A DNA stretch of 64,000 nucleotides from NCBI GenBank assembly GCA_017396225.1, contig JAFQMP010000073.1, positions 1,897-65,896 on the forward strand, read 5' to 3'. This document shows, piece by piece, positions 6,662 through 24,318 of the stretch. Numbering within the stretch: the stretch's first letter is position 1; each line of letters begins with the position of its first letter. This stretch comes from Clostridia bacterium. Lineage in GTDB: Bacteria; Bacillota; Clostridia; Oscillospirales; CAG-272. Both the position numbers and the translations under genes were made by a program. Below the pieces are notes generated by a model. The model saw nothing but the letters and a program-made list of their open reading frames with translations. It did not search any database and was not told the DNA's origin.

Positions 6662-6666
6662 GCCGC

Positions 6667-7072: not shown

Positions 7073-7086
7073 CGGAGGCGCCAGGC

Positions 7087-7602
7087 ATGTACGAACAGCT
7101 GCTTGACGAGGCCGTCGCACACGGTCTGACCGTCATTGAAAAATACCCCTTTCTCTCTCCGCGTATCCGCGGGCTTTGCTGCGATGACACGATTGCAATC
7201 AGCGCGCAGGTTGAAACCGAGGCGGAGCGCAAGGTTGTGCTCTGCGAGGAGCTTGCACACGCCCTGCATTCCTACGGCAATATCCTCTGTGACCCCCAAA
7301 TGGAGCGCCGTGTGCGCGACCGCATTTTTGACCGCCTGATTGGTCTTGAGGGATTACTTGACGCCTTTCTTGCAGGCTGTCGCGAGCCCTGGGAGTTTGC
7401 AGAGCATTTTGATGTCCCCGAGGAATTTCTGCTTGAGGCTGTCGCCTCCTACCGCGCACGCTTTGGCACGATGACAAAATTATCCTGCGAAGCGGGCGAA
7501 TTTGCCATTTCCTTCGAGCCCACGCTGCGTTTGCGCCGCCTATGCAGAACGCGCAGTGGAAAGCGTGCCGTCGGTCGGCGCGCAGACTCCGAAACTGCCT
7601 GA
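7087..7602 (+). CDS. ImmA/IrrE-like metallopeptidase-domain protein (variant motif)
   Basis: 171 aa immediately after the XRE gene, with RBS GGAGG. Core ...DDTIAISAQVETEAERKVVLCEELAHALH resembles the ImmA HEXXH region, but the first His is Glu. Confidence 0.5.
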   Translation: MYEQLLDEAVAHGLTVIEKYPFLSPRIRGLCCDDTIAISAQVETEAERKVVLCEELAHALHSYGNILCDPQMERRVRDRIFDRLIGLEGLLDAFLAGCREPWEFAEHFDVPEEFLLEAVASYRARFGTMTKLSCEAGEFAISFEPTLRLRRLCRTRSGKRAVGRRADSETA

Positions 7603-7615
7603 AAGGAGTTTTTAT

Positions 7616-9109
7616 ATGAAAAAATATCTGCTTTCCCTCGACCAGGGTACAACCAGCTCACGCGCCATTGTGTTTGACCTTGCAGGCAATCCTGTGGCGA
7701 AGGCCTCGCGTGAATTTACGCAATATTTTCCCCGCGAGGGTTGGGTAGAGCATGATGCCGAGGAAATTTTTGAAAGCCAACTTGCCACCGCACGCGAGGC
7801 ACTGGAGACGGCAGGACTTTCCGCCAACGATATCGCGGCAATCGGCATCACCAACCAGCGTGAAACAACCGTTGTCTGGGACAAGGAAACCGGCAAACCG
7901 ATTGCCCCTGCCATTGTTTGGCAGTGCCGCCGCACCGCAGAGCACTGTGCCAACCTGAAGGCGCGCGGTCTTGCCCCTCTGATACGCCAAAAAACAGGCC
8001 TTGCGCCTGACCCCTACTTCTCGGCGACCAAGATTGCGTGGCTGCTTGAAAACACCGCCGGAGCCGCCCAAAAAGCCCGCGAGGGCAAGCTGCTCTTTGG
8101 CACCATTGATACATGGCTCATCTGGAATCTGACCGCAGGGCGTGTACACGCAACAGACCCCTCCAACGCCTCGCGCACTATGCTTTTCAACATTCACAAA
8201 ATGACCTGGGACGAGGAGCTGCTCGTACTCTTCGGCATACCGCGCTGTATGCTCCCTGAGGTCAGGGACACCGCCTCTCTCTTTGGCGAAGCCGACCCCT
8301 CTCACCTCGGTGCCGCAATCCCGATTGCAGGTGTGGCGGGCGACCAGCAGGCAGCGCTCTTCGGTCAGTCCTGCTTCGAGACAGGTGATGTCAAGAACAC
8401 CTATGGCACAGGTGGCTTTCTCCTGATGAACACAGGCGATACGCCCATTCCCTCCAAAAACGGTCTGCTCACCACAGTGGGCTGGCGCATTGCCGGCAAA
8501 ACCACCTATGTCTTGGAGGGCTCGGTATTTATCGCAGGCGCTGCCATTCAATGGCTGCGTGACGGACTTGGGCTGCTTGCCACGGCAAGAGAAAGCGAAG
8601 CAATTGCCGCCTCGGTTCCCGACAGCGGCGGGGTTTATTTCCTGCCCGCCTTCGTCGGTCTTGGTACCCCTCACTGGGAAGCTGATGTGCGCGGCACCAT
8701 CTGCGGCATCACACGCGGCACCACGCGCGCGCATCTGGTACGTGCAACACTCGATGCGATTGCCCTGCAAACCGTCGATGTGCTTGATGCGATGCAGAGC
8801 GATACGGGGCTAAAAATTCCCTGCCTGCGCGTGGACGGCGGCGCTGCAGCCAACAACCTACTGGTGCAGCTGCAAAGCGACTACGCAAATCTACCGATTG
8901 CTCGTCCGCAATCGGTAGAAAGCACCGCCTGGGGCGCTGCCGCCCTGGCCGGACTTACTGTAGGGCTCTTTGATAGCACCTCGACGCTTGCAGGTCTTTC
9001 TGCTAAGGCAGAAACCTTCCACCCACACATGACCGCAGAAGCACGCGGGGGCGTGCGCGACGGTTGGAAGCGCGCCATTGAAAGTGCGCGCACCTTTGCA
9101 AAGAAATAA
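7616..9109 (+). CDS. glpK: glycerol kinase
   Basis: 497 aa starting MKKYLLSLDQGTTSSRAIVFD after RBS GAAAGGAG. FGGY-kinase motifs are present throughout. The track ORF start at 7502 is an upstream in-frame extension. Confidence 0.95.
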   Translation: MKKYLLSLDQGTTSSRAIVFDLAGNPVAKASREFTQYFPREGWVEHDAEEIFESQLATAREALETAGLSANDIAAIGITNQRETTVVWDKETGKPIAPAIVWQCRRTAEHCANLKARGLAPLIRQKTGLAPDPYFSATKIAWLLENTAGAAQKAREGKLLFGTIDTWLIWNLTAGRVHATDPSNASRTMLFNIHKMTWDEELLVLFGIPRCMLPEVRDTASLFGEADPSHLGAAIPIAGVAGDQQAALFGQSCFETGDVKNTYGTGGFLLMNTGDTPIPSKNGLLTTVGWRIAGKTTYVLEGSVFIAGAAIQWLRDGLGLLATARESEAIAASVPDSGGVYFLPAFVGLGTPHWEADVRGTICGITRGTTRAHLVRATLDAIALQTVDVLDAMQSDTGLKIPCLRVDGGAAANNLLVQLQSDYANLPIARPQSVESTAWGAAALAGLTVGLFDSTSTLAGLSAKAETFHPHMTAEARGGVRDGWKRAIESARTFAKK

Positions 9110-9173: not shown

Positions 9174-10298
9174 TTAACCGACGATGCCGGAGCGCTCGAT
9201 ACCCTGTACCAGATATTTCTGGCAGAAGAGGTAAAGAACAATCAGCGGTGCGCTGGCCATCAGGCCGCAAGCGTAGGTAATCGCCTGCCTATACGATGCC
9301 GAGGGCGACTGTGCGGTTGCCTCCTTGAAGATAGAAACAAGAGAAGCGGGAATATTCTGCGATGCCTGAGGCAGATAGGTCATCAGCGCAGGTCTATCAG
9401 CCATGAAGAAAAGCGGAATATAGAAGTCGTCCGTCCACTGCCAGCAGAATGCAAACAGGAACACGGTAATCAGCATCGGAATCGACAGGGGCAGAATGAC
9501 CTGCACGAAGGTGCGCAGTGTATTTGCACCGTCGAGGTATGCAGATTCCTCAAGCTCATCAGGTACGCCACGGAAGAACTGACGCAGCATGAAAACATAC
9601 AAGCCGTTCTTGAAGGCCAGACCGGTCATCGACAGAAGGAAGAGCGGAATCACGCTCTTAATCGTGCTGATGCCGCCAACAAAGTTGTCGGGCAGAATGT
9701 GAATCTTCGAGAGAACCGCGTCAATACCCTCAATACCCGTACGGGCACCGCCAGCAAGGAAATTAAAGATACCGAAGATATCCAGATGCTGGAAGCGATA
9801 GAAGATTGCAGACTGCATCGTACCGTGCGGAATTGCAAGCGACAGAACCACCATAAGGAATACAAGCTTTGCACCCTTGAACTTAAACTTTGCAACACCG
9901 TAGCCGATGAGTGCACAGGAAAGCGTCTGCAGCAATGCACAACCAAGCGAAAGAGCCAGGGTAAGGAAGAAGGTCTTGAAATACCCAATGTCTACAATGA
10001 TTGATTTATAAATTGCTGCCGAAAGCCCACGAGGTACGTTTACAACGGTTGTATCCATGAAATCGGCAGGCGCCATAAAGGAACGGATAACAATCGTATA
10101 GAAGGGCTTCAGAATCACGAATGCGATACCAATCAGCAGAAGCAAGCGGAAGATATACCACAGCACGTTCTTCGCAAAGTTCACAGAAAGGTACTTGACC
10201 TTCATACGCTCTTTGAGACTGGTGCGCTCAAAGTCAACGCGAATTTTGTTTTTGGTTTCGCGCATAACCTGGGGCTTTGAATCCATATTATGTGTCAT
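9174..10298 (-). CDS. carbohydrate ABC transporter permease (MalG-like, enlarged)
   Basis: 374 aa, multi-TM, EAA loop ESAYLDGANTLRTFVQVILPLSIP. RBS GGAGG. Confidence 0.85.
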   Translation of the reverse strand: MTHNMDSKPQVMRETKNKIRVDFERTSLKERMKVKYLSVNFAKNVLWYIFRLLLLIGIAFVILKPFYTIVIRSFMAPADFMDTTVVNVPRGLSAAIYKSIIVDIGYFKTFFLTLALSLGCALLQTLSCALIGYGVAKFKFKGAKLVFLMVVLSLAIPHGTMQSAIFYRFQHLDIFGIFNFLAGGARTGIEGIDAVLSKIHILPDNFVGGISTIKSVIPLFLLSMTGLAFKNGLYVFMLRQFFRGVPDELEESAYLDGANTLRTFVQVILPLSIPMLITVFLFAFCWQWTDDFYIPLFFMADRPALMTYLPQASQNIPASLVSIFKEATAQSPSASYRQAITYACGLMASAPLIVLYLFCQKYLVQGIERSGIVG

Positions 10299-10316
10299 TG
10301 TTATATCCTCCTTTCC

Positions 10317-11285
10317 TTAGTCTCTGCGCTGATAGAAGACATATGCGGAGAAGATACCCGCTACAATGCCAACTATCACAAGTACAACGAGGAAGTACAT
10401 CCAACCCATTGCGGCACTGATGTGCTGCGAGTGTTCAACCGTACTGACGTACGTGGAGTTGATGATGCCCATAACGGTATTGGTATCGGTGGTAAAGGAG
10501 TCGATAATGGTGTAGATTGCATTTACCAGAATCATCGGGCTCACCATCGGGAAGGTAATCTTCCAGAAGGTTTCCCAAGAGGTTGCACCGTCAATCTGGC
10601 AGGACTCGTAAATTGCAGGAGAAATCGACTGCAGCGAGGCCAGGAAAATCAAAATCTGTACACCCGAGCGATTGATAATACCCGATATACTTGACACCGC
10701 CGAGGAAATGTATGTGACAAGTCCTGTACCGACACCCAAGCTGCTGAAGATTTTTGCAAGCAGGCCCTCCAGCGCCATGGTAGATGCCAGTTTGTCAGTG
10801 GCACTCTCCTCCATACCAAGGTCCATACCGTTACCCGATGCGCCATAAGAGGTTGCCATGATAGACTCCATAATACCCGTAGATACAATAACGGGCAGGA
10901 AGAAAATCGCACGGAATGCAGCGCGGCCGATCATCTTCTGGTTCAGAATAACAGCAACAAAGAGTGAGAAAATCAGGATAGCGGGAATATTAAATGCCAT
11001 TTCCTTCAAGCCGACCAGCAGAGACTGGGCGAAGTCCGCATCACCGAAGAGTGCTGTGGAATAATGCTTGAAGCCGACAAATTCCTTGGTCGTAATACCG
11101 TTATCGGTTGTGTAGTTGAAGAAGCTGAAAGAAATCGCTTCCCAGAGAATCGGCAGATAGATGAATACCAGACCGATGACAAAAGGAAGAACAAAGAGCC
11201 AACCGGCACGTGCCTTTCTTTTGTCAAGGGAGGCAATCTTTTTCTTTTTTACGGGCGCTTCAGGCGCCATTACTTCTTTAGTCAT
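10317..11285 (-). CDS. carbohydrate ABC transporter permease (MalF-like)
   Basis: 322 aa, multi-TM, EAA loop ESCQIDGATSWETFWKITFPMVSP. RBS GGGAGG. Confidence 0.85.
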   Translation of the reverse strand: MTKEVMAPEAPVKKKKIASLDKRKARAGWLFVLPFVIGLVFIYLPILWEAISFSFFNYTTDNGITTKEFVGFKHYSTALFGDADFAQSLLVGLKEMAFNIPAILIFSLFVAVILNQKMIGRAAFRAIFFLPVIVSTGIMESIMATSYGASGNGMDLGMEESATDKLASTMALEGLLAKIFSSLGVGTGLVTYISSAVSSISGIINRSGVQILIFLASLQSISPAIYESCQIDGATSWETFWKITFPMVSPMILVNAIYTIIDSFTTDTNTVMGIINSTYVSTVEHSQHISAAMGWMYFLVVLVIVGIVAGIFSAYVFYQRRD

Positions 11286-11306
11286 AAGTATTTACCTCCC
11301 TTTCTG

Positions 11307-14300
11307 TTATTTCGTGGGGTAAGTGATGACAGCGTAGCCGTATGCCTCGATATTGTAAACGATAAGCTCACCATTAACCTCAACCGTGGTGGTGATAGCG
11401 TAATCGTTAAAGTTCAGAATCAGAGACTTCACTGCGTAAGCGTCGCCATTTTCATCATAATCACCGTAGGTGACCTTGACAACATCACTGTCAACAACGT
11501 ACTTGTAGTTGTTGCTTTCCTCGGCCTCAACAGTGGTATCAGCCTTGGGAAGAACAAGCGTTGCAGTCAGTGCATTGATTGTTTCCTCAAGCTTCACATT
11601 GATGCCGTCGGTGTTAAGCGTGTACATAAAGAGCGTCAGCAGGGTTTCTACCGCAACGTTGTCGTAGCGAATATCCACATACTGCTCGTTATCACCATAC
11701 TCTCTGTAAGCAATACGGTAGAGGAACGCCTCGCGGTCTGCCACGCGGTCATACGCGATGTTGGTGTAGCCGGAGAGCACCTCATTGACAGCCTCGGGAG
11801 CGCCGTATTCCAGTGCGAGGTCGGTTGCAAGAACCTTATCTACGCTATTGATAAAGACGTCCTTGTTGGCAGCGGTCAGTGTAACCGTCTGTACACCGAT
11901 GTAGCGCGCGCGGATTGCCACGTAAATGTCAATCACCTTGGAAAGCTCAACCTTTGCAGCCTCGCAAATCGCAAGGTCCGCGCCGGTGTTGCGGAGGTAA
12001 TCATACTGTGCCTTGGTCTGCTCGAGCAGGGTGTCAATGTTCTTGTTGATAGCAGTCAGCTCAGCAACAGGACGTGCAACATAAGTCGTCAGGGCAAGGT
12101 TGAATGCCTTCTCAAGCTCCTTATTGCTCTTGTCTGCAAGATAAGCGTTCCAAGCGCTCATCAAAGCGCTGTTTTTGCTACGCTGTGCCTGAACAAGTGC
12201 ATACTGCACGTCAAATGCATCGGCATATGCCTGCATCTTTGCCTCAGCCTGGGCCATGAATGCCTCGGCTGCCTTAGTCTTTTCAATCTTCTCCTGCAGT
12301 GCAGCTGCCTGTCTTTCAGCCTCAGCAAGTGCGTCCTGCCAAAGTTCTTCTTCGTCAGGAACACGGGACGTGTTGGTGGCATCATCTCTGTTCAGGAACT
12401 CGTGGTCAATAATCAGTCTATCCTGTACATCGTGGAGCACCTCATTGAGCTCATTGTAAATCTCAACCAGACGTGCACGCCAGATGTCATAACGCACCGA
12501 GTAGTTCTGAGAAAGGAGTTCGTCCTCCTTCAAAAGCTCGGTATTGGCGTAGGAAAGAATGAAGTAAACGCCTGCACCGCTCTCCATTGCCTTCAGCATC
12601 GCGTAGGTCAGGTTGCCCTCCATATTAAGGGGCGAGCCTGCAAACTGCACGTAGCCGTGCAGAACCACGCCGACAAAGGGTACAGCGGACAGCTCCCTGA
12701 TATAGCGGTTGGAATCAAGCGGTACGTCAAGGATATAATCGGCATAGGCCCAAGTATACGCGTTGCCGCCGTCGACCATAATGTCGTAATTCTTCTCAGA
12801 GAAGTAATTCAGCGCCTCAATCGTGTAGTTCTTGGAATCCTCACGGAGCGAAACGTCCTCCTCGTCATAACTCGAGTTCAGGTCGCTGCCCATCGTGGAG
12901 AGGGAGATTGACAGATTGCCATACTTTGCATATCTCTTTTCCAGCTTTTCGTAGAAGTGGCTGAAGGTTGCGGGAGAGCGCACCATCTCAAAGTAGCTGA
13001 CAAAATCCTGTCTGGTTACCGAGTAGGTACGCTTAGTGGTATAGCGGTTATCCACCGTACGCGCACCATACTTCTTCATATTGACAGAAGATTCGGAATT
13101 CTTGGTATAAAGGAAGTCAAAATCAGGGAAAAGACCCATTTCAGGGTGCTCGACTGCATATTCAACAAGTGCCTCAAAGCCGGCCTTGCCGCCTGCAGCC
13201 TTTTCCCACTTGAGCTTATAGGGAACCTCTGAGTAAAGACCGCCGTTTGCATAACCGGTCATCTTAAACTGAACGTTGCTGATTTTCTCGCCAAGCAGAT
13301 ACTCATACATGGTCTCAATATCCTCGAAGGAGGTGAGTGCCACGGAAACGGTTACGGGAACCGACATAATCTTCTTGACGGTATCGGTACAACCAAAGGT
13401 CTCAATGTAAAGCGGGATAGACTCCTGTACATCATCTTTTGTGAGACGCTCGAAGCCCTCCTGCGTTGCGCTCAGATAATCACGGTAAGCGCAGGCCATA
13501 CCCAACCAGGAGCACTCGTAGTAGCGAGAGAGATCCGCTTGCTCAGCCTTGTTCTCATCGGAAAGAATAATGTAGCGGATTCTGTAGTCGTCGGTGTAAC
13601 GACGGCTTGCATATACGTCCCAGCCAGACTTGGAATGGTCCATCGGACGCGTGATGAAGGAGGGGATAACCGAGGTGTAGTACTTTTCGGTGTGATTGAG
13701 TGTGAGAGATGCCATTGCATCGCCCTGCTCAATGATTGCGAAATAGCCATACTGCTCTACGGTTTCACCCTTGGCGTCCTTGACGGTGGTTGCCTGGCCA
13801 AAGACAGGCATACGCATCGGCGTGGTAGCCTTTCCGGAAAGACCGGAAATCGCCGCATAGTCCGCACCGTACAGGGTCATCGTGGTCGGGTTCAGCGTGC
13901 TCAGGCTATACAGTGCGCCGGAGCCGTCAGGGAGGAAGGAATAGCCGTCATAGGTCAAACCGCCGTCAACGGGGTTACCCTCTGCGTCCTTGTTCTCGCT
14001 ACCCTTGTAGGAAGCACCCATATAGGGCAGAATCTGCAGATTGGTAATGCGGTAAAGAGTCTCATCGTAGCGCAGGCCGTTTGCGGGCAGGCTTACGGAA
14101 AGACCTGCATCACTGATCGTGTACTCAAGCGCCATACGGAATACAGGCGGCGAAATAGAATCCTCTTCATATTCAACCAGCTCGTAGTCCGCCTCCATCT
14201 GTGCGAAGGAGTACTCAGGGCAGTACTGCAGAATGTAGGACTCCAGCCTTCTCAACAGAGCGGGAGACTTGTTGGAGTCGTTATAAACGTAAAGATTGAT

Positions 14301-14996
14301 GTTCTTCTTTTCAGTTACCGGATAACCCTCAGCAACACCGGGGCCACCCTGCTCCTTCTTGGCGAAATACACCATAAAACGAGAAAGCTCATCAGAGGTA
14401 ATCTTCTTATCCTTGACGGCCTGCTCAAGCGGCGTCTTGATGTAGGTAATGAAGCTCTGCTCCTCAATTCTCATAGGCAGCAGGTAGCGAGAGGAAAGTT
14501 CACCGATAGAGTATTCCACGCGCACGCCGTTTCGAATCGGCAGCACATTAATCTGATTCTTCATCACGGCGCTGGAAAAGCTGTTCAGCGTATTGCCACT
14601 CGGCTCAGCAGCGCTCTTGTAGGAAACGATGATTTGCGACATCATCTCATCGTACTGCGCAGGCAGTGCCGTTTCCTTCTGAGAAAGGTCCCAGGGGTTC
14701 GTAAAGAGAATCTCGTCAGTCGCCTTCTTCTGATATGCAACTACTGCGGTAACAGGGTCGCAATACAGGGCATACTCTGCAGTCTCGTAGAAGAGCTCCA
14801 TTGCGTCAAGGCGGTCCTTGGCGGTTTCATAGGTCATCTGCTGGCAGTAGTATTTTGTCCACGTCTCAAGCGAGTCGGATTTCTTCGGGGGCTGAAGCTC
14901 CTCGTCGGCTGCGGAAACAACCAACACGGGGAGCATACAGGCGAGCATAACCACCGACAAAAGCGCGGACAGAAATCTTACTAAAAACTTTTTCAT
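11307..14996 (-). CDS. large secreted protein of unknown function (possibly DUF5696-type) with C-terminal coiled coil
   Basis: 1229 aa with an N-terminal signal peptide (MKKFLVRFLSALLSVVMLACMLPVLVVSAADE). Central region contains TGYANGGLYSEVPYKLKWEKAAGGKAGFEAL...GLFPDFDF. Ala/Glu/Gln-rich helical stretch encoded around 11950-12360. The family name is from memory of similar loci, not from a search. Confidence 0.6.
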   Translation of the reverse strand: MKKFLVRFLSALLSVVMLACMLPVLVVSAADEELQPPKKSDSLETWTKYYCQQMTYETAKDRLDAMELFYETAEYALYCDPVTAVVAYQKKATDEILFTNPWDLSQKETALPAQYDEMMSQIIVSYKSAAEPSGNTLNSFSSAVMKNQINVLPIRNGVRVEYSIGELSSRYLLPMRIEEQSFITYIKTPLEQAVKDKKITSDELSRFMVYFAKKEQGGPGVAEGYPVTEKKNINLYVYNDSNKSPALLRRLESYILQYCPEYSFAQMEADYELVEYEEDSISPPVFRMALEYTISDAGLSVSLPANGLRYDETLYRITNLQILPYMGASYKGSENKDAEGNPVDGGLTYDGYSFLPDGSGALYSLSTLNPTTMTLYGADYAAISGLSGKATTPMRMPVFGQATTVKDAKGETVEQYGYFAIIEQGDAMASLTLNHTEKYYTSVIPSFITRPMDHSKSGWDVYASRRYTDDYRIRYIILSDENKAEQADLSRYYECSWLGMACAYRDYLSATQEGFERLTKDDVQESIPLYIETFGCTDTVKKIMSVPVTVSVALTSFEDIETMYEYLLGEKISNVQFKMTGYANGGLYSEVPYKLKWEKAAGGKAGFEALVEYAVEHPEMGLFPDFDFLYTKNSESSVNMKKYGARTVDNRYTTKRTYSVTRQDFVSYFEMVRSPATFSHFYEKLEKRYAKYGNLSISLSTMGSDLNSSYDEEDVSLREDSKNYTIEALNYFSEKNYDIMVDGGNAYTWAYADYILDVPLDSNRYIRELSAVPFVGVVLHGYVQFAGSPLNMEGNLTYAMLKAMESGAGVYFILSYANTELLKEDELLSQNYSVRYDIWRARLVEIYNELNEVLHDVQDRLIIDHEFLNRDDATNTSRVPDEEELWQDALAEAERQAAALQEKIEKTKAAEAFMAQAEAKMQAYADAFDVQYALVQAQRSKNSALMSAWNAYLADKSNKELEKAFNLALTTYVARPVAELTAINKNIDTLLEQTKAQYDYLRNTGADLAICEAAKVELSKVIDIYVAIRARYIGVQTVTLTAANKDVFINSVDKVLATDLALEYGAPEAVNEVLSGYTNIAYDRVADREAFLYRIAYREYGDNEQYVDIRYDNVAVETLLTLFMYTLNTDGINVKLEETINALTATLVLPKADTTVEAEESNNYKYVVDSDVVKVTYGDYDENGDAYAVKSLILNFNDYAITTTVEVNGELIVYNIEAYGYAVITYPTK

Positions 14997-15019
14997 ATTC
15001 AGTTTTCTCCTTTCCGCAC

Positions 15020-17191
15020 TTACAGTCGATAGTTGATTTCAGATACGATGTTGGAAATAAAGCCAACCATGTCCATAACCAGAGAGGTAAAGAGAATACC
15101 CAGGAACATGATAAATGCCATACCGACAATCGTACAGAGAATAATCACAAGGTTCTTACCCATGGTATAGTCGTGCGTAACCATGGTACCGAAGAAGAGA
15201 AGGAAGCCCGCCCAGATAAAGCCAAGTGCAATCACCAGCTTCAGAATATCAAGCTCCTCAACCACAACGAAGTTCGAGAACAGCGTTGCGGGAACGGTGG
15301 TCAGGGTAATCGGCAGAACCGAGTAACCAACCGCCACGAAAATATCCCTGAATTTACCTTCGCCGTCAAACAGGGTGGTAAGACACCAGTTTGCAATAAC
15401 GAAGAGCAGAACGGGAACGAAGACCACGAGAACCTGCATCAGGATATTTGCCTGACCCTTGCTCTGCGGGTCCATAACATAACCGGTACCGACCGCACGG
15501 TAGAAGAGCGACAGTATCGTAATGCCCATAAAGACGAGGGCTGCGCGTACAGAGCCGCGTTTCTCGTGCTTCAAATCCCAGAAACCGTCCACAGGGTGGA
15601 AGATAACGTGGAATACATAGTAAAGCTCTTCCTTGAAGGTGCGTTTTGTCTTGGAGACCGCCACGCGCTTGTTGATCTTGCCGGCGTGCTGCAGGAATTT
15701 CACAATCACCACGCAAACAATAACAATAACAACAGGAATGAGCAGGAAGAAGCGGGACATCCACTCCTTACGCATCTCCTTATAAGCGACCGAGTAGTTC
15801 TCGGTATCGTAAGCAGCCTTGTAGTATTCAAGAGCCTCCTCGTATTTACCGCTGCGGGAGAGCGACTGACCGATACCGATGTAAGCGGCATCGTAGTTCG
15901 AGTTGCGCATCAGGATTTCCTTCCAGTCATCGATTGCAAGGTCGTACTGGCGGTCATTCTGGTGTTGCAGCGCACGAATCAGCGTATCGCCGTACTCGGT
16001 GCGCTTGAATACTGTGACGTTACCGTTGGTATCAAGCACCAGGAACACGTCCCCCTGGTAGCAAATCGCCTTCATCGTATTGAGGTCAATGTTACCAAGC
16101 TGCTGACCCTTGTCGCAAAAGGCGAAAAGCAGGTTGCCGTCGTAATCATAGGTAAAGATTTTGCTGCGTTCAACGTCGAAAATCGTCCAGGTTCCCTCAG
16201 GGCCGCACGCAACGTCCTCTACACGGGAAATGTCACTTGCCGTATCGGCTGCTTTACCACCCGTGTAATCAATTTCGCCTGCAGGCGGCCAGAAGCCGTT
16301 GCGGCGCATGATTTCGTCACCTGCGGGGTTCAGAAGCTTACAAGGGGCGTAGACGCCGGTCTTGACCTTGGTCTTGATAGCGCTTTCCATCTGCGCCTCA
16401 AGCTCGGGCGCGTAAATGGTTGCATAGATAAAACCGTTTTCGTTGATATCAATATTATTATAAGGATAGGAAACAATCTTTTCGGACTTTCTGCGCTGCT
16501 CCGCAGTCTGGAAGCGACGCCAAATCTGATCCCAGACCGACATAACGGCCTGCTGTGCACCGATGAAGGTGGTAAACTCACCCTTATCGGTCATAACAAT
16601 GATACCCTCACTGGTCTGCTTCGATACGACATAAAGTCTCTCGTACGCGTCAACAGCAAGTGCAATAGGCTCATAAATTGCATTCTCGGAGAAAAGCTCA
16701 GATTCAGGCTCTTCAATCACGGAATCAAAGCTGCCGTCGTGGTTAAAGGTAACAATACGAGCGTTTGCGGTATCGCATACAAAGATGCGACCCTTCTTAT
16801 CCTCACCGCCGACCGTACGGTCCTCGGTGACGAATACACCTTTCGGCTGCTTAAAGCTGTCAAGCAAGCCCTGGTCGTTTTCGAATGTCGAAATAACCTT
16901 TTTCACATGATAATACTTATCAAGGATAAGAATGCGATTATTATCGGTATCGGCAATGTAAACATTACCTGCCGCATCAACGACCATATCGCTTGCATTC
17001 TTCAGCGCCGTATCCAATCCCATTGAGCTTGCGTTAAGAACCTTCTCAGGCGTATATGCATCAGGAGAAAGCAGCGGCTTACCGTCAATGGAATAGGTGT
17101 AGGTCTGATATGCTTGTGCAGCTGTCGCCGGAATGGCAAAGACCATCAGGAGGGCAAACAGCACACACACGATAGATATGATTTTTTTCAT
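15020..17191 (-). CDS. NHL-repeat / TPR-like / Yip1-domain membrane protein
   Basis: 723 aa. Signal peptide, then NHL-like beta-propeller repeats (AAGNVYIADTDNNRILILD, GRIFVCDTANARIVTFN). A TPR-like segment follows (GKYEEALEYYKAAYD). C-terminal part is a multi-TM Yip1-like domain. Confidence 0.65.
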   Translation of the reverse strand: MKKIISIVCVLFALLMVFAIPATAAQAYQTYTYSIDGKPLLSPDAYTPEKVLNASSMGLDTALKNASDMVVDAAGNVYIADTDNNRILILDKYYHVKKVISTFENDQGLLDSFKQPKGVFVTEDRTVGGEDKKGRIFVCDTANARIVTFNHDGSFDSVIEEPESELFSENAIYEPIALAVDAYERLYVVSKQTSEGIIVMTDKGEFTTFIGAQQAVMSVWDQIWRRFQTAEQRRKSEKIVSYPYNNIDINENGFIYATIYAPELEAQMESAIKTKVKTGVYAPCKLLNPAGDEIMRRNGFWPPAGEIDYTGGKAADTASDISRVEDVACGPEGTWTIFDVERSKIFTYDYDGNLLFAFCDKGQQLGNIDLNTMKAICYQGDVFLVLDTNGNVTVFKRTEYGDTLIRALQHQNDRQYDLAIDDWKEILMRNSNYDAAYIGIGQSLSRSGKYEEALEYYKAAYDTENYSVAYKEMRKEWMSRFFLLIPVVIVIVCVVIVKFLQHAGKINKRVAVSKTKRTFKEELYYVFHVIFHPVDGFWDLKHEKRGSVRAALVFMGITILSLFYRAVGTGYVMDPQSKGQANILMQVLVVFVPVLLFVIANWCLTTLFDGEGKFRDIFVAVGYSVLPITLTTVPATLFSNFVVVEELDILKLVIALGFIWAGFLLFFGTMVTHDYTMGKNLVIILCTIVGMAFIMFLGILFTSLVMDMVGFISNIVSEINYRL

Positions 17192-17206
17192 GTTGTCCTC
17201 CTTTGA

Positions 17207-18082
17207 TTAGTCTTTCATACCGGACGAGCCCATTGTCTCAATGATATTGGACTGGGAGATAACGAAGACGAGAATGGGCACCAGCATCATAATAACCATC
17301 GATGCTGCGTGTGCACCCGCACGCTTGATACCGCCCGCCATAATCTGACCGATAGCGTAGTTGAAGGATTTGAGCTGCTCGGAGTGAATGTAAATCGAGC
17401 TGCCCTTGTTCCAGAGGTCCTGGAAGGAATAGATAATAAGCGTCAGCCATGCGGGCTTAACCATCGGCATCGCAATGACCCAGAAGGTTCTGAGCTCCGA
17501 TGCACCGTCCAGACGTGCCGATTCAAGAACGGCGTCCGAAACGTTGGTCTCCATGAACTGCTTCATCAGGTAAAGGCCCAGCGAGGTTGCCCATGCAGGC
17601 ACGATGATTGCCCAATAGGTATCAATCCAGTTCAAGGCGCTCATTATAATAAAGGAAGTAACTGCCGTAACCGTGGAGTGGAACATCAGCGAGGTTCTGA
17701 CCGTACGGAACATCAGCTGACCGCCGGGGAACTTGATCTTTGCCATTGCGTAAGCCGCAAGAGAGGAGAAGAACAGGTTACCGACCGTACCGACAACCGA
17801 GGTAAAAACGGTGTTGAAGATGTAACGGGAGAACGGCACCCACGAGGTGTTCATCAGCATGAACAAATCGCGGTAGTTTTTGAATGTTGGGTTGCGCACG
17901 AAGAAGCGCGGGGGGAACATCCACAGCTCGTCAAGGGGCTTCAGGGACTGCATGACAACATAGATCATGGGCAGGAACATGAAGGCACCCAGGAGAGCAA
18001 GAACAATCGTGATACCTGCATCACCGCCGGCCGAACGGTTGAGGACCACCTTATGCTTTCTGGTACGAAGTTTCTTTGCCAT
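17207..18082 (-). CDS. carbohydrate ABC transporter permease (MalG-like)
   Basis: Start chosen at MAKKLRTRKHK (ATG 18082), immediately after the stop of the upstream permease. EAA loop ESARLDGASELRTFWVIAMPMVKP. Confidence 0.85.
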   Translation of the reverse strand: MAKKLRTRKHKVVLNRSAGGDAGITIVLALLGAFMFLPMIYVVMQSLKPLDELWMFPPRFFVRNPTFKNYRDLFMLMNTSWVPFSRYIFNTVFTSVVGTVGNLFFSSLAAYAMAKIKFPGGQLMFRTVRTSLMFHSTVTAVTSFIIMSALNWIDTYWAIIVPAWATSLGLYLMKQFMETNVSDAVLESARLDGASELRTFWVIAMPMVKPAWLTLIIYSFQDLWNKGSSIYIHSEQLKSFNYAIGQIMAGGIKRAGAHAASMVIMMLVPILVFVISQSNIIETMGSSGMKD

Positions 18083-18083
18083 A

Positions 18084-19019
18084 TTACTGACCCACCTTTG
18101 ACAAGACTTTCTTGACCAGCATGTTCGCACCGATCATAATCGCAAAGAGCACAACCGCGATAGACGAGGAATAGCCAACCTCAAAGCGCATACCGCCGTA
18201 GTCATCAAGATGGTGCATGATGGTATGTGCCGCATAATCGACGGAGGGGAAGCCACACAGAGCCGTAACAACGCCACCAAAGCCAAAGGCAGAGGTGATT
18301 GCCATAACGGCACCGAACATCAGCTGGGGCTTCATCGAGGGCAATGTAATAAACCAAAGCTCCTGCCAACGGTTGCGTACGCCGTCCACGGCGCCCGCCT
18401 CGTACATCGAGCGGTCAATGCCCTGCAAGCCTGCGATAAAGGACAGAAAGGAGGTACCAAGCGAGGTCCAGAGTGCAACCACGATACAAAGAGGCATAAC
18501 GTACTTTGCGTCCTGGAAGAACTGAATCTCCGAGGTGATGATGCCGAGGTCAAGGAGGATACCGTTGACCCAGCCGTAAGAGTCGCCCGAGAACAGGGTA
18601 CCCCAGATGAGGTACACCTGACCGGAAATAGAGGGTGCATAGAAGATGAGCGTAACCACCGCACGAATCTTGGGGGGCAGCTCGTTAATGAACCATGCTA
18701 CCATCAGGGACATCAGGTAGGAAACGGGACCTACGATGATAGCAAAGATCAAGGTGTTTTTACAGGCGATAATGAAAATATCGTCATCGAGGAAGAGACG
18801 GATATAGTTATCAAGGAAAACAAAATCCGGCACCTCGAGCAGGTTAAAGTTTGTTAAACTGATCACCATCGAAAGCAGCACGGGCACAACCGTGAACAGA
18901 GTGAAAATCAGCATATAGGGTGCTACCATTGCATAGGCAACCTTGTGCTTTTTCATCTCATTCCATGTCCATTGTGCGCGTGACATATCCGATCGGATCA
19001 CCGCTTTTTTCTTTGACAT
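18084..19019 (-). CDS. carbohydrate ABC transporter permease (MalF-like)
   Basis: 311 aa, multi-TM, EAA loop EAGAVDGVRNRWQELWFITLPSMKP. Confidence 0.85.
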   Translation of the reverse strand: MSKKKAVIRSDMSRAQWTWNEMKKHKVAYAMVAPYMLIFTLFTVVPVLLSMVISLTNFNLLEVPDFVFLDNYIRLFLDDDIFIIACKNTLIFAIIVGPVSYLMSLMVAWFINELPPKIRAVVTLIFYAPSISGQVYLIWGTLFSGDSYGWVNGILLDLGIITSEIQFFQDAKYVMPLCIVVALWTSLGTSFLSFIAGLQGIDRSMYEAGAVDGVRNRWQELWFITLPSMKPQLMFGAVMAITSAFGFGGVVTALCGFPSVDYAAHTIMHHLDDYGGMRFEVGYSSSIAVVLFAIMIGANMLVKKVLSKVGQ

Positions 19020-19059
19020 GTTGTTTCTCCTTACAGCGCTAAATTATAATGTAACCGAA

Positions 19060-22000
19060 TTACGACTTCACATTAAGCGCAGCAATTGCATTGTTAATCG
19101 CCTGAACCGTGCCCTTGTAAGCATCGGTATCCAGAGCAAGCAATCTGTCGCGCACGTTGGTCAGGGTGTGCTCTTCAACCAGGTCATAGTCACCGCGCTT
19201 GATATCAGCAATGATATCAGACATAATGTACTCTGCCTGCTTGTCAACGTTGCCGCCCGAGCCGACCTTTTCAACATCGGCGTTCCAGGCTGCAAGCAGC
19301 TGGTCAAGGCGCTTACTCTTCAGCGTCTGGCCAATCTCGAGGGTTTCAAGACCGAACTCCTCACGCTTACGGGTAATTTCCTTGTTAATAATTGTAATGT
19401 AGCTCTGCAGCTCCTCAGTAGGATCTGCGTTATCGTTGTACGCAGCAAGGAATGCGAAGCTGGTGTAACGGCCAATAATATAGCTGCCAGGATAGTTGGG
19501 GATAGACGCGAGTTTTTCGAACTGAGCGTTCAGCTGCTTCAGTTCCTCAGAGGTCCAGGGCATCTCGGAAAGCGCCTGAATATTCGCGGTCGCGTGCTTT
19601 GCGGAGGGGCCGATGATAGCAACCATCTCATTCGAGTAAACGACCTGGCAATCCTTACCGGAGTGCCAAACCATGAACTGCCATGCACGGGATTTCTCCA
19701 TCATTCCCTCTTCACCGCCTGCGGCGCCACAGCCGTTCAGCATAACGATAGCCGAGGTCGTCGCAACGCTGCAGTTGTTGATGATGGGGTCACCATTCTC
19801 ATCAACCTCACCGGTATCAATGCCGGGCATGGGATAGAATGCCCACAGACCCTTGATTTCGGTTGCAAATACCGTCAGCTGGTTGTAGGTGCCGTTGTAG
19901 GAAGCAAAGCCAATCGGCATCTCACCGGTACGGAAGCGGTTCGCAAAGTCATATTTATAAGGGAAGGAGTACATGGTGAAGAAGCTGCACATCTTATCAA
20001 AGGACTCAAGACCCACGTTAGAGTCAAGGTTGATGCGCATACCGCCATCTGCAAAGAGCGTACCGCCCATCTGGTAGAGGAAGACCTTATAGTCGGTGTG
20101 CATGCCAATCTGCATGTTATTCGCCTGCAGCGTGGGAATTGCAGCCAGCACATCGTCCCAGGTCTTGGGAATCTTGATGTCCAGGTCTGCGAGAATGTCC
20201 TTGCGGACAAACATCATGGTAAAGTTCTGCGTCTCGGGCAAGCCGTAGCAGTGCTTAACGCCCTCGGCGTCCTCAATCTGAAGAACCGCCATTGCAGCAT
20301 CATTGAAGTTCTCCTTCACTGTCTGCTCAAAGTTGGGCATATTTTCAATCGGCAGCAGTGCGCCGCGGATTGCATAGTTGATAACATCGTCCTCACCGAT
20401 ACCGATGTAAACGTCGGGACCCATACCTGCCAGTACCGAGGGCAGCAGCGTGCCGCCTGCAACCAGCTTGAGGTTGACGGGAACATCATATTTGGGAGTA
20501 AAGTCGTTGTTAATCAGGTTACGGATAACCTGTGCCTGGTCACGACCGTAAGCAAGCCATACGTCAATGGTGTTTTCGCCGGAGGTTTCCTCTGCGGTTG
20601 CACCCATACGGTCATAGTTACGGAAGAAGGACATGATAAAGCTTGAAAGCTCGTGAATCAGCGCCTTGAAGAAGCCTGCCTTTGCCTGAGGTGCATCACC
20701 GCCCGTAGGCTGAATGATGATGTAGTCAAGCTGGAGGGGCTGGGTCTTGGCGTCGGAGAGCCAGGTACCGAGAGAGCCGATATAAGACTTGAGCTGGTCA
20801 AGATATTTTGCAATCTCGTCCTCGTTACTGCCCATACGGTCAAGCAGCCAGGCAACCTTCTCAAGCGTTGCAACGTTCGAGCTCTTCTCACCCGTGATGT
20901 CAGCAAGCAGCTTTGCAATATCGTAAAGCTCCTGAGACTGAATCTTCATATCAATCATGACATCGGGCATAACACGTGCAAAGCCGTAGTCACGCAGCTC
21001 ATCAGGGTCAGCACCCGTCAGCTTCATGATGGCAAGATAGTCAGCGTTGATAGCGGTCAGGGCTGCATCTACACGACGGACAATGTCGCCGGTCGAGCCG
21101 AGCGCAACCTCCATGGTAATGGTGTAGACAACGTCCTTCTCAAAGTAGAACTGATAATCTACGCCGTTGCCGCTGTTAAAGAGCGTGGACTGCCAAGCAG
21201 AGTTGTAATTGAAGCGCAGGCGGGTTGCCTCAACAAAGGGCACCGAGCCGTCATACTTACCGTCACTGCTCTCAATGCGCAGGGTACGGCAGGTATACAT
21301 ACCGTCCAGCACGTTCTGGCGGTAGCGCGCTGCAATATTGTACATACCGCTGGTGGATACCGCAAAGCTGTAACGCACCCACTGACCTGCGGTCTGCCAC
21401 TTCTCACCACCCAGGGTGTTGAGCATCGTGCAGCCGGTGTCTGCGGGCATCGTTGCCGCATCGGTACGGTCCTCTACAGGGTAAATGGTCTGCGAGGAGG
21501 TTGCACCAGGGTACTCAGCCTGAATGACAATCTTGTCCTGACCGGAGGGCATACCCTTGTACTGTGCGAGGTACTGCTCATAGGTCGGCAGCGAAATATG
21601 CTTAACGAGGCGGATTTCCTTAATGGTAATGGGCTCGTTGACAGCCTCAAGAGAAATCTTATGCGTGCCCGCCGTGAAAGCAAACTCAAAGCTCTCTGCA
21701 TAGAAGCCATCGGCATCGCGCAGCTCGTAGCTGCGGAGCTCGGGCGCCTGGTCCATCGAAGGACGCAGCTCGTTGTTATCAATATCACTGGTGAAGAAAC
21801 GCACCGTATACTCGTTGACAAACGCTGCCTGCGATTGCGTCCACACCTCAGGGAAGGTCAATGCAACATAAGCCTCGCCGTTCTTGGCGCGCACATCTGC
21901 GTCGGCAAAGCCTGCCTTGACAGCCGCCTCATAAATCTCGGTAACCGAAGCGTCCTTGGTGGCATAGACCTCTGCGATGACATAGGTGTTCTTCCAGACC

Positions 22001-22476
22001 TTGGGCAAGGACAGGAAGCGCGCCTCGGCAAAGGGAATCTTGCCGTCAATCATCAGGACTCGCTCAATCGACGCGGATTTCGCGTCGTCGGGCCAGTACT
22101 CAATGACGATACTGTACTTTGCGTCACTGGGAATGTTAACCTCCCAAGTAACAACACCGTTGTTCGGTGTAAACAGGCCAACCGTGCCGTCCTCAAGCAG
22201 CACCTTTCTGACGTCTTCCGCCGTCAGGCCTTTGCCAAGCTCCACGTAATCAACACCCTTGATAGGGGGAAGATCCACAGTGGCTCCGGGAACCCCTGCG
22301 TGCTCAGCCTTGTATTCCTCATAGGTCTGGGCATTCAGCTGTTCCTTGAACTGTTGCAGGTCATCGTCGTCGCCGCCGCCCGGTTCGTTCGATGCGCTGA
22401 CAGTCATCGCACCGCCGAACAGGAAGCATACAGCCAAGACGAAAGCCAAGAGTCTTTGGAGCATCTTCTTTTTCAT
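19060..22476 (-). CDS. giant extracellular solute-binding protein with N-terminal CBM-like modules
   Basis: 1138 aa from MKKKMLQRLLAFVLAVCFLFGG (ATG 22476, RBS GAGGAGGA). The N-terminal half has two beta-sandwich-like segments (KYSIVIEYWPDD..., GMYNIAARYRQN...). The C-terminal half resembles type-1 sugar SBPs (VWLAYGRDQAQVIRNLINNDFTPKYDVPVNLKLV...). Confidence 0.7.
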   Translation of the reverse strand: MKKKMLQRLLAFVLAVCFLFGGAMTVSASNEPGGGDDDDLQQFKEQLNAQTYEEYKAEHAGVPGATVDLPPIKGVDYVELGKGLTAEDVRKVLLEDGTVGLFTPNNGVVTWEVNIPSDAKYSIVIEYWPDDAKSASIERVLMIDGKIPFAEARFLSLPKVWKNTYVIAEVYATKDASVTEIYEAAVKAGFADADVRAKNGEAYVALTFPEVWTQSQAAFVNEYTVRFFTSDIDNNELRPSMDQAPELRSYELRDADGFYAESFEFAFTAGTHKISLEAVNEPITIKEIRLVKHISLPTYEQYLAQYKGMPSGQDKIVIQAEYPGATSSQTIYPVEDRTDAATMPADTGCTMLNTLGGEKWQTAGQWVRYSFAVSTSGMYNIAARYRQNVLDGMYTCRTLRIESSDGKYDGSVPFVEATRLRFNYNSAWQSTLFNSGNGVDYQFYFEKDVVYTITMEVALGSTGDIVRRVDAALTAINADYLAIMKLTGADPDELRDYGFARVMPDVMIDMKIQSQELYDIAKLLADITGEKSSNVATLEKVAWLLDRMGSNEDEIAKYLDQLKSYIGSLGTWLSDAKTQPLQLDYIIIQPTGGDAPQAKAGFFKALIHELSSFIMSFFRNYDRMGATAEETSGENTIDVWLAYGRDQAQVIRNLINNDFTPKYDVPVNLKLVAGGTLLPSVLAGMGPDVYIGIGEDDVINYAIRGALLPIENMPNFEQTVKENFNDAAMAVLQIEDAEGVKHCYGLPETQNFTMMFVRKDILADLDIKIPKTWDDVLAAIPTLQANNMQIGMHTDYKVFLYQMGGTLFADGGMRINLDSNVGLESFDKMCSFFTMYSFPYKYDFANRFRTGEMPIGFASYNGTYNQLTVFATEIKGLWAFYPMPGIDTGEVDENGDPIINNCSVATTSAIVMLNGCGAAGGEEGMMEKSRAWQFMVWHSGKDCQVVYSNEMVAIIGPSAKHATANIQALSEMPWTSEELKQLNAQFEKLASIPNYPGSYIIGRYTSFAFLAAYNDNADPTEELQSYITIINKEITRKREEFGLETLEIGQTLKSKRLDQLLAAWNADVEKVGSGGNVDKQAEYIMSDIIADIKRGDYDLVEEHTLTNVRDRLLALDTDAYKGTVQAINNAIAALNVKS

Positions 22477-23247
22477 ATTTTCCTCCTCTTTACTGCACTT
22501 GCAGTTTGGTATGTTTGCGCGGTTTGACGCGCGGCGCATGCCCTGCGCACGCGTGAGAACAAATAAAGAACGGCGAGCCGTTCTCGTTTGCCGTCAAGCG
22601 AGGCAGAGCCTGCAAGCCCACTGGGGGCTTTGATGTATGGCAATATTTTAGCACAGAAAGCCGACAAAAGTCAAGTGAAAATTTCTCGCGCATTATGCGT
22701 ATATGCGCGAGGCAAGCAGGTCAGGGCACCCGCGCAAGCACCCCTGTGAAAAGCCCCTTTTATGCAAAATTTCGTCAATTTTTCGCAAAAGCGATTTTAA
22801 TTGTTAAATAAAATTTACCTAAACCCGCAGTGAGAGGAGATGCAGCCGTCCCCAACTGGTCTTTTTTCGTCATCTTTTCCCAAAACAACTTTTTTGTAGC
22901 CCACAAAAGTAAATTTAATTTAACGTGTAACCGCAAAAGGATTTTTGAGAGCCTCCCTCGCCGCCTTTTTTCAGGGGAGCCGTTTTTTGTGCAGGTTAGA
23001 CAAAAAGGAAAGCCCATTTTCTACGCCGCGTACCGCGCGCACAAAGCGGCACTTTTCCGCCTTTTTACAAAAAATTCACATTTGCATCTCCTTTTTACGT
23101 GCTCAGGCGCTTGCGCGCACATAAATGCGTGGCTTTCCGCTTTTGCGTTTTTTTGCCGCCGCCAAACATAAGCACCGAAATTCGGGAAACACTAACACCA
23201 AGCAAGCGCAGTTTCGCTGCGCAAAATTATGCGATAAGGCGGTTTTT

Positions 23248-24318
23248 ATGATGAAACGTTTCACTTTATTGTTACTTGCTCTCCTGCTGATTGCCCTGCC
23301 CCTTGGCGGCTGTCGTCGGGACAAGGGCGGCACAGATGTTCACGTTTTTTACTACACCTACAGCGACCCTTATATTTCCTCGGTGCGCGCAGCGCTTGAC
23401 CGCGAGCTGAGCGGTGCCGGGCTCTCCTACCAGGATTATGACGGCAACGGCAACCAGACCACCCAGACCGAGCAAATCCGCACGGCGGTAACAAAGGGTG
23501 CCAAGGCTCTGCTTGTCAACATCGTCAACACAGGCTCTGACGATGCTGCACGCGAAATTACCGAGCTTGCAAAGAACGCGGGTATTCCGCTGATTTTCTT
23601 TAACCGCGAGGTAAGTGACACCGTTGTCAAGAGCTACAACAACTGCGCCTTTGTCGGCACACGTGCCGAGGAGGCTGGCATACTGCAGGGCGAGATGATC
23701 GGTGAATACCTGCTTAAAAACTATGAAAAGTGCGATTTGAACGGCGACGGTGTGATTTCGTATATTCTCTTCAAGGGTGAGGAGGGCAACAATGAGGCAA
23801 TTTTCCGCACCAAGTACAGTGTGGAGGAGGCGAACAAGAAATTAACCGATGCGGGCAAGCCCGCCCTGCGCTTCTACGATGCCTCAAACAAGGACGGCTA
23901 TCTGGTAGATAAAAACGGCCAATGGTCGGCTACCGCCGCAAACGAATATATGACCACCGCGCTGACTGCCTACAACACCGCAGCGGGCAATATGATTGAG
24001 CTTGTCATCTGCAACAATGACGGCATGGCAGAGGGTGCCATTTCTGCGCTCAATGCAGCAGGCTACAACAAGGGCGGTGAAAGCAAGGCCATTCCCGTCT
24101 TCGGCGTAGATGCAACGGACGCCGCCAAAACCCTGATTAAAAACGGCCAGATGGCGGGCACTGTCAGACAGGACGCGGCAGGTATGGCTAAGGCGCTGCT
24201 GCACCTGGCAAAGAACGCCACCACAGACGGGCGTGAGCTGATGGCAGACACCACCGACTTTACGGTAGACGATGCGGTACAGAAAATCCGCATTCATTAC
24301 GAGAAATATGTCGGCTAA
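23248..24318 (+). CDS. mglB: galactose/glucose ABC transporter substrate-binding lipoprotein
   Basis: Start at MMKRFTLLLLALLLIALPLGGC (lipobox). Type I periplasmic-binding fold sequence. First gene of an mglBAC-like operon. Confidence 0.85.
   Translation: MMKRFTLLLLALLLIALPLGGCRRDKGGTDVHVFYYTYSDPYISSVRAALDRELSGAGLSYQDYDGNGNQTTQTEQIRTAVTKGAKALLVNIVNTGSDDAAREITELAKNAGIPLIFFNREVSDTVVKSYNNCAFVGTRAEEAGILQGEMIGEYLLKNYEKCDLNGDGVISYILFKGEEGNNEAIFRTKYSVEEANKKLTDAGKPALRFYDASNKDGYLVDKNGQWSATAANEYMTTALTAYNTAAGNMIELVICNNDGMAEGAISALNAAGYNKGGESKAIPVFGVDATDAAKTLIKNGQMAGTVRQDAAGMAKALLHLAKNATTDGRELMADTTDFTVDDAVQKIRIHYEKYVG

Follow-up and report, generated by a model that had tools for sequence, protein, structure and literature searches.

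A conserved seven-gene module of Bacillota with two ABC permease pairs, a DUF5696 protein and an NHL/TPR/Yip1 membrane protein: a probable glycan capture and import cassette in a Clostridia genome

A 64,000-nucleotide stretch of a contig from a Clostridia metagenome-assembled genome (contig JAFQMP010000073.1, lineage Oscillospirales, CAG-272; the whole stretch is called the window here) carries on its minus strand a cassette of seven genes, named G1 to G7 in the order of transcription. They encode a giant extracytoplasmic solute-binding protein (SBP; G1), two pairs of ATP-binding cassette (ABC) permeases (G2/G3 and G6/G7) and, between the pairs, an NHL/TPR/Yip1 membrane protein (G4) and a DUF5696 protein (G5). 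With a probability of roughly 0.6, we regard the cassette as one copy of a widespread seven-gene Bacillota module that captures a complex glycan outside the cell, trims it, and takes it up. It has the look of a general-purpose chassis for these tasks, which different Bacillota combine with differing intracellular or secreted glycoside hydrolases (GHs) and regulators. Sugar importers of the ABC type and polysaccharide loci of Gram-positive bacteria are familiar; the fixed seven-gene core is undescribed in the literature searched. Neither full-text searches nor a search within a Paenibacillus xanthan paper gave a description of the module, DUF5696, or PF18952, and no characterized system matching the locus was found; such a match would have counted against a preliminary description made from the sequence of the window.

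Relatives of the cassette were sought in GTDB at one genome per species. A relative of G5 was found in 567 genomes, and the best 80 of these, all uncultured gut or rumen Clostridia, were examined together with four metagenome loci. With the seven window proteins as tblastn queries, the order G1 to G7 was recovered in 68 of 68 complete loci and is consistent in the other 16, which are cut by contig ends. Median identity to the window is highest for G3 (80%) and G2 (78%, ranging from 71 to 98% in 66 related loci), followed by G6 (59%), G1 (56%), G4 (55%), G7 (53%), and G5 (42%). The DUF5696 core itself matches 3614 clusters at 50% identity in a library of 1.84 billion proteins.

The same module recurs in all eight distant loci examined (L085-L092), which belong to two classes and in which G5 identity is 21-29%; the arrangement that the preliminary description had drawn from one locus is thus conserved in other genomes, near and far. 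Position-specific orthology was shown for Butyrivibrio and Paenibacillus, where every window protein has its positional counterpart as best match (G5 at 26% and 21% identity, respectively), and the remaining six loci were assigned from gene calls and Pfam. The module stands without variation on a 508-kb replicon (chromid) of Paenibacillus cellulosilyticus, with a UgpC-type ATPase gene immediately upstream; in Neobacillus kokaensis (L087), with an extra SBP, an MsmX-like ATPase, GH2, and GH38; and in L090, where the flanks examined held no GH, regulator, or ATPase. The NHL and Yip1 parts of G4 are separate adjacent genes in the other five: on plasmid pNP243 of Butyrivibrio fibrisolvens D1 (accompanied by GH43, a histidine kinase with response regulator, and two extra SBPs), in Cohnella luojiensis (LacI, an extra SBP, GH26, GH113, and GH9), in L089 (LacI, GH30, and GH35), in L091 (an extra SBP and a CBM65-like protein), and in L092 (an AraC-type response regulator, an extra SBP, GH95, GH10, and an esterase). 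This occurrence amid GHs or sugar regulators, in Butyrivibrio, Cohnella, Neobacillus, and three further loci, supports a role in glycan use. Some Paenibacillus genomes hold two paralogous DUF5696 genes (P0447/P0453 and P0434/P0439), as expected of substrate-specific uptake systems. The Neobacillus locus also contains, at 14181-20832 of L087, two GFO/IDH/MocA oxidoreductases and an AP_endonuc_2 protein (xylose-isomerase-like TIM) beside its GH2 and GH38, a set that we take to be reminiscent of oxidative (3-keto) glycoside cleavage pathways.

Much of the case for processing at the surface turns on G5. Pfam assigns it to DUF5696 (E 2e-119, residues 277-870), and its parts follow one another as an N-terminal signal or anchor, an N-domain, a beta-sandwich, a (beta/alpha)8 barrel, a coiled coil (~880-1030), and a C-terminal beta-sandwich. 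An AlphaFold2 (AF2) model built with 58 homologues (predicted local distance difference test [pLDDT] 81.5; predicted template modeling score [pTM] 0.73) was compared with the PDB by Foldseek, and the top matches are GH129 structures: 5OPQ (E 6e-21) and 5WZN (E 3e-17, template modeling [TM] score on target 0.69). The former is the 3,6-anhydro-D-galactosidase ZgGH129 and the latter the alpha-N-acetylgalactosaminidase NagBb. Matches to GH129 have probability 1.0, TM scores of 0.59-0.71 on the target, and 10-12% identity in the structural alignments; GH36, GH31, and GH97 rank next. The model thus has the N-terminal beta-sandwich and (beta/alpha)8 barrel that make up the GH129 fold. Sequence searches give a different picture. 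Pfam at E ≤ 10 on 41 members gave DUF5696 only, without GH129, and searches of the PDB with G5 (phmmer and two profile searches) returned no GH and neither 5WZN nor 5OPQ, the matches being chance ones such as coiled coils and interferon-gamma. No GH, polysaccharide lyase, or carbohydrate esterase family of Pfam was found in the cassette or its flanks. The preliminary description had seen no recognizable enzyme and had named a clean CAZy assignment of the 1229-aa protein as a point against it. By sequence the protein falls into no CAZy family and no enzyme is recognized; the second statement gives way at the level of structure, where the match of the G5 model to GH129 provides an enzyme candidate, a glycosidase-fold protein missed by sequence methods.

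Residue conservation in G5 was followed through a 103-sequence alignment across DUF5696 subfamilies. Near-universal residues of the beta-sandwich are E291, D357 (PDGSG D357), and D379 (GxD). In the loops after the barrel strands, E/D532, D709 (LNSD), R718, N745, H780, N791, and E805 are near-universal as well, and D761 is moderately conserved. Placed on the model, these loop residues would make a pattern typical of an active site on the C-terminal face of the barrel, and E532, D705/D709, D761, and E805 are candidate catalytic carboxylates. Another candidate, an aspartate of the beta4 motif G[VI]DF in cultured homologues that is Ser in the window's clade in a small alignment, was dropped when the column proved unconserved in Paenibacillus (Tyr, Leu) among the 103 sequences. 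When compared with G5 of Butyrivibrio and Paenibacillus, the coiled-coil extension of ~150 residues (~880-1030) is confined to the window's clade.

Capture of a large substrate is suggested by the architecture of G1, which runs from a signal peptide through two beta-sandwich modules resembling carbohydrate-binding modules (CBMs) of families 6 and 35, and a helical bundle, to an SBP_bac_8 fold and a helical tail. Pfam places SBP_bac_8 in the C-terminal half (E 1e-10; 42 bits against a cut-off of 27), so that G1 has the SBP_bac_1/8, cluster B-like fold of a receptor for a carbohydrate uptake transporter of family 1 (CUT1; TC 3.A.1.1); a PDB sequence search gave weak matches to sugar SBPs, e.g., NagB2 and MBP1. 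The AF2 model of residues 29-680 (pLDDT 79.9) covers the two beta-sandwiches and the helical bundle and extends into the beginning of the SBP fold. Foldseek matches this model to isolated CBM35 and CBM6 modules (TM 0.55-0.73, E 3e-5 to 1e-3), among them CBM35 2w1w (TM on target 0.70-0.73) and CBM6 5fui/2cdo. By predicted fold, the N-terminus of G1 is two CBM6/35-like modules, and the label "CBM-bearing" in the preliminary description stands at that level; by Pfam it does not, CBM_35 scoring 17.3 bits where 28 are required (E 0.006). NCBIfam returned nothing for G1 or G5. Neither protein shows a lipobox, sortase motif, or C-terminal anchor, each having an N-terminal hydrophobic segment only.

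All four permeases match Pfam BPD_transp_1, G3 and G7 above the gathering score and G2 and G6 below it (20.6 and 24.5 bits vs 26.4). Models of the UgpA/UgpE/MalF/MalG kind in NCBIfam and Pfam match all four, those for UgpA and MalF matching G2 and G6. The EAA loops that the preliminary description had reported in every permease are present: YEAGAVDG in G2 (residues 216-223), LESARLDG in G3, YESCQIDG in G6, and EESAYLDG in G7. The cassette thus holds the two MalF/MalG-type subunits of a CUT1 importer twice over. The enlargement of G7 consists of extra loops at ~160-225 and ~285-340. Identity between the pairs is low (~23% for G6 vs G2), and each pair has orthologues across classes: G6 is 41% and 35% identical to the same-position genes of Butyrivibrio and Paenibacillus, and G7 35% and 25% identical to its positional orthologues there. 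The duplication must therefore be ancient, with both pairs kept. That one binding protein serves two translocators, as the preliminary description had it, applies to the window's clade and not to five of the eight distant loci, which have one or two extra SBPs of ~450-540 aa.

Firmicutes that share an MsmX ordinarily have no ATPase gene in the transporter operon. Scans of the 64-kb window and of the surroundings of the cassette in the 84 related loci turned up no MalK/MsmX-type ATPase (ABC_tran plus TOBE/OB) of the CUT1 kind; such a gene adjoins the module in two distant loci, L086 and L087. No transcriptional regulator lies within ~15 kb, the nearest being a SpoVT-like gene at 40805-41491. 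The preliminary description had likewise found the cassette to be without ATPase or regulator, as the window scans and, for the ATPase, the related loci now bear out. Its further suggestion of an ATPase encoded elsewhere is supported by the UgpC/MsmX-type gene that heads the module in P. cellulosilyticus and N. kokaensis.

G4 consists of a signal peptide, an NHL beta-propeller (~30-400), a TPR region (406-470), a transmembrane helix (482-500), and a Yip1 domain (527-697); hydropathy places the propeller and the TPR region outside the cytoplasm. Pfam matches Yip1 over its full length at 63.3 bits (cut-off 28.6), with the five hydrophobic segments of that five-transmembrane family, along with NHL at 34 bits and TPR. 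In PDB sequence searches the propeller is closest to PknD-type sensor NHL propellers and the Pizza designs that derive from them (E 9e-14), and matches TRIM NHL domains too. The NHL and Yip1 parts are either fused, as here, or adjacent, as in five of the distant loci, which argues that the two are functionally linked. No MacB/FtsX or HlyD-type gene was found by Pfam in the cassette or window, and the partners of G4 are type I importer permeases.

The cassette is a tight co-directional set of seven genes behind one promoter-like site (Table 1), a probable transcription unit. The minus-strand open reading frames (ORFs) coincide with those of the preliminary description, and the close packing claimed there is real: the gaps from G1 to G7 measure 40, 1, 15, 23, 21, and 18 nt. 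That description had seen no internal terminators, and this is upheld; terminator-like sites number 20 across the cassette vs 13.9 ± 3.9 in shuffles, which is no excess, and none of them is strong. The start of the 1138-aa SBP at ATG 22476 is likewise upheld, by a ribosome-binding site (RBS) GAGGAGG 5 nt upstream, the longer ORF from 22539 having none. For G3, ATG 18082 (291 aa) is most likely the start, and not GTG 18130; it matches the gene calls in the relatives L001-L004.

Regulation may lie in the 5' leader, which was compared with the stretches ahead of G1 in L001, L005-L032, and other loci. The promoter-like site upstream of G1 is the sole one to match at 10 of 12 positions, and in relatives, too, G1 is preceded by a -10-like TAAAAT with TTGCCATAC after it. 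Terminator-like hairpins occur in 19 of 64 leaders and in 5 of 420 coding control windows. The small RBS-proximal hairpin is paired in 93% of cells, with compensatory changes in 5 of 6 pairs (17 loci), and its score was matched by none of 500 shuffles. Outside this hairpin the leader alignment is too poor for a consensus structure, and Rfam gave no match in leader or cassette. The leader may act as a cis-regulatory attenuator, standing in for the missing regulator.

Table 1. Features of the cassette, its leader, and its surroundings (window positions)
Feature	Positions	Strand	Description
G1	19060-22476	-	1138-aa extracytoplasmic binding protein (SBP)
G2	18084-19019	-	MalF/UgpA-like permease, 311 aa, first pair
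G3	17207-18082	-	MalG/UgpE-like permease, 291 aa, first pair
G4	15020-17191	-	723-aa NHL/TPR/Yip1 membrane protein
G5	11307-14996	-	1229-aa DUF5696 protein
G6	10317-11285	-	MalF/UgpA-like permease, 322 aa, second pair
G7	9174-10298	-	Enlarged MalG-like permease, 374 aa, second pair
Promoter-like site	22645-22674	-	TTGACT-18-TAAAAT, extended -10 TG
5' leader	22477-22644	-	~165 nt, between promoter-like site and G1
Terminator-like hairpin in leader	22556-22585	-	GAGAACGG-CTCG-CCGTTCTT, then T-run
Small hairpin	~22492-22506	-	Directly 5' of RBS
RBS of G1	22482-22488	-	GAGGAGG
GlpK	7502-9109	+	FGGY kinase, converges on G7 end
MglBAC-like transporter	23125-26895	+	CUT2 binding protein, ATPase, permease; divergent from cassette
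Prophage remnants	2459-7602		See next three rows
P22-like portal	2459-4294		
Terminase large subunit	4200-5606		
M78/IrrE-like peptidase ORF	7087-7602		Weak match
Giant ORF	29064-36998	-	2644 codons
CNNM/CorC-type transporters	38067-40723		Two genes
SpoVT-like regulator	40805-41491		
Surface-polysaccharide genes	41488-46330	-	Wzy_C/O-antigen-ligase-like; Wzz + P-loop tyrosine-kinase-like; Polysacc_synt_2 dehydratase

Taken as a glycan importer, the cassette can be envisioned to work as follows. With its CBM-like modules, G1 would bind a polymer or a large oligosaccharide, and it would pass products to the G2/G3 channel. G5, held at the surface, would cleave as an exo-glycosidase or at the least bind glycans as a pseudo-glycosidase, and would feed the G6/G7 channel, which is encoded after G5 as G2/G3 are after the SBP. 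G4 would be a membrane scaffold whose Yip1 domain contacts the permeases and whose propeller and TPR region hold G1 and G5, proteins without an anchoring motif of their own. A shared MsmX-type ATPase, encoded at another place in the genome, would power both channels. The capture, processing, and import of a polymer foreseen in the preliminary description finds support in the predicted CBM6/35-like fold of G1 and the predicted GH129-like fold of G5. The window's clade carries the module without neighboring GHs.

A number of observations weigh against this reading, and some of them concern G5 itself. The protein has no sequence-detectable relation to any GH family (phmmer, hmmsearch, Pfam). Residue 709, Asp in ~90% of the family, is Ser in the window and its closest relatives. 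An acidic residue 705 accompanies the change (proteins P0002-P0023; the two residues lie at window ~12870-12884), being Asp or Glu in 12 of 12 Ser709 sequences vs 15 of 45 others. The change may mark a relocated active-site carboxylate, or else loss of activity; the 12 sequences are one subclade, so the correlation is weak evidence for relocation. Finally, the same G5 and G4 are kept beside quite different GH sets, so that a generic mechanical or binding role of G5 fits as well as substrate-specific hydrolysis. The missing GH signature, the Ser at a near-universal Asp, and the unrelated GH sets beside one G5 family would all suit a non-catalytic pseudo-glycosidase that serves as substrate receptor or docking lid of G6/G7, with depolymerization left to enzymes encoded elsewhere. 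So would the order G5-permease-permease, which mirrors SBP-permease-permease in every locus, and the lack of a second SBP in the window's clade. Pulling the other way are the many invariant polar and acidic residues in the post-strand loops of the barrel, as in active TIM-barrel glycosidases, and the ordinary extra SBPs of the five distant loci, which could serve G6/G7; moreover, docking of a TIM-barrel protein on a type I ABC importer would be without a precedent known to us. A receptor without activity is kept as an alternative, if an unlikely one. That the NHL propeller of G4 is the enzyme (a lyase or lactonase), with G5 purely structural, is far less credible. Beta-propellers house several polysaccharide lyase and lactonase families, and weak or faint Pfam SGL (SMP-30/gluconolactonase) matches occur in G4 relatives, but the best PDB sequence matches are all binding modules and no lyase family was matched by Pfam or NCBIfam.

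The remaining adverse points come from the setting of the cassette. In the window's clade no second SBP, regulator, GH, or ATPase lies near it, unlike an inducible nutrient locus; it sits among housekeeping genes (glpK, nadE, tRNA synthetases) with flanks that vary; and identity is higher for G2/G3 (median 78-80%) than for the GlpK of these loci (47-75%). Clade-wide presence beside housekeeping genes without regulator or GH, and very strong purifying selection on the first permease pair, would be consistent with constitutive envelope maintenance, in which the cell salvages or remodels its own wall or capsule glycans, and the clade-specific coiled coil of G5 could span the wall. We consider such a role improbable: in other Bacillota the orthologous modules are part of classical loci for plant or host glycans, with regulators of the LacI or AraC type, and the terminator-like hairpin of the leader suggests regulated rather than constitutive expression. 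As for two unrelated ABC transporters and two unrelated surface proteins merely lying side by side, the ~23% identity of the permease pairs is what one might cite, and synteny effectively refutes it, given an identical order in the 68 complete related and eight distant loci, gaps of 1-40 nt, and internal terminator-like sites that are not in excess. Import of a glycan after its capture and trimming is the reading that we prefer.

The neighborhood of the cassette offers several further observations. GlpK (687 bits against an equivalog cut-off of 590) is found at this place in 17 related loci and farther downstream in L003, L035, and L041, in closer relatives only; a functional link to the cassette was considered and judged to be local synteny. 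Because its Pfam domain does not begin until residue 42, glpK probably starts downstream of the listed TTG 7502. On the other side, the MglBAC-like galactose/glucose transporter contains the only nearby ATPase and is a neighbor in nine close loci also; its link to the cassette was again judged local synteny, and a connection through uptake of released monosaccharides stays conceivable. Prophage remnants precede glpK, and a relative of their M78/IrrE-like ORF recurs in 15 related loci. The 2644-codon ORF has no Pfam match; it likely starts at Met codon 26, with the signal peptide MKKQLRLVLFAALVLVMLMTMVFLASA, and the composition of its product, with much Gly, Thr, Ala, Val, and Asn, points to a giant protein that is probably secreted or at the surface and belongs to no known family; it has one weak relative in the 84 related loci (L026, 29% over 291 aa). 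Surface-polysaccharide genes adjoin the SpoVT-like regulator, near two CNNM/CorC-type transporters.

The module has been seen in at least 90 Clostridia and Bacilli loci examined, with DUF5696 relatives in 567 species genomes. CAZyme annotation is blind to the cassette, and it is from CAZyme annotation that the carbohydrate niches of many of its carriers, uncultured gut and rumen Clostridia, are inferred. Characterization could yield a new glycosidase family and a role for bacterial Yip1 proteins, and could explain how Firmicutes, lacking an outer membrane, deal with large glycans at the cell surface. Cultured carriers with substrate-suggestive neighbor enzymes include Cohnella luojiensis, Neobacillus kokaensis, Butyrivibrio fibrisolvens D1, and Paenibacillus species. 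A bolder proposal, which we put forward tentatively and as rather doubtful, is that the module is the Gram-positive counterpart of the Bacteroidota "utilisome": a stable super-complex and reusable chassis in which a Yip1/NHL/TPR scaffold would hold the receptor and a DUF5696 enzyme over two ABC channels, coupling cleavage to import of two product classes. DUF5696 would then be a new GH family distantly related to GH129/GH101, and Yip1 the first obligatory non-canonical subunit of a type I importer.

Comparison with known systems may help to place these proteins. GH129 is a relative of GH101, and its barrel resembles that of GH13 (PMC8106489). G5 is predicted to share with GH129 the beta-sandwich followed by a (beta/alpha)8 barrel; it adds the N-domain, the long coiled coil, and the C-terminal beta-sandwich, and is always encoded between ABC permeases. 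For G4, the closest parallel is YknW of Bacillus YknWXYZ, a Yip1-family membrane protein that is an accessory subunit of an ABC transporter and the one Yip1 protein of bacteria linked to such a transporter (PMC4887032). Both systems encode a Yip1 membrane protein with an ABC transporter; however, YknYZ is a MacB-type exporter for a peptide toxin, whereas the cassette has type I importer permeases, and G4 adds a large NHL/TPR ectodomain, leaving only the Yip1 domain in common.

The cassette resembles the CUT1/MsmX importers of Firmicutes in its SBP_bac_8-fold receptor, its MalF/MalG permeases with EAA loops, and the absence of an operon ATPase, and differs from them in having two permease pairs, an SBP of 2.5-fold normal size that carries CBM-like modules, and obligatory NHL/TPR/Yip1 and DUF5696 genes between the pairs. 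Those importers share an orphan ATPase (MsmX in B. subtilis, MsmK in S. pneumoniae). The Gram-positive polysaccharide utilization locus (gpPUL), as defined for Roseburia and Eubacterium, is approached where the module in other Bacillota has GHs and LacI, AraC-type, or two-component regulators alongside; the window cassette falls outside that definition because it has no CAZy-classified enzyme and no regulator, and the seven-gene core is not part of the gpPUL concept as described. The Sus-like systems of Bacteroidota pair SusC/D with surface glycan-binding proteins and surface enzymes. Their proteins are unrelated to those of the module, which belongs to a single-membrane envelope and is ABC-driven rather than TonB-driven, but the likeness in logic is plain: in both, a conserved import chassis is joined to surface binding and processing, recurs beside differing GH sets, and can be present in several paralogous copies per genome.

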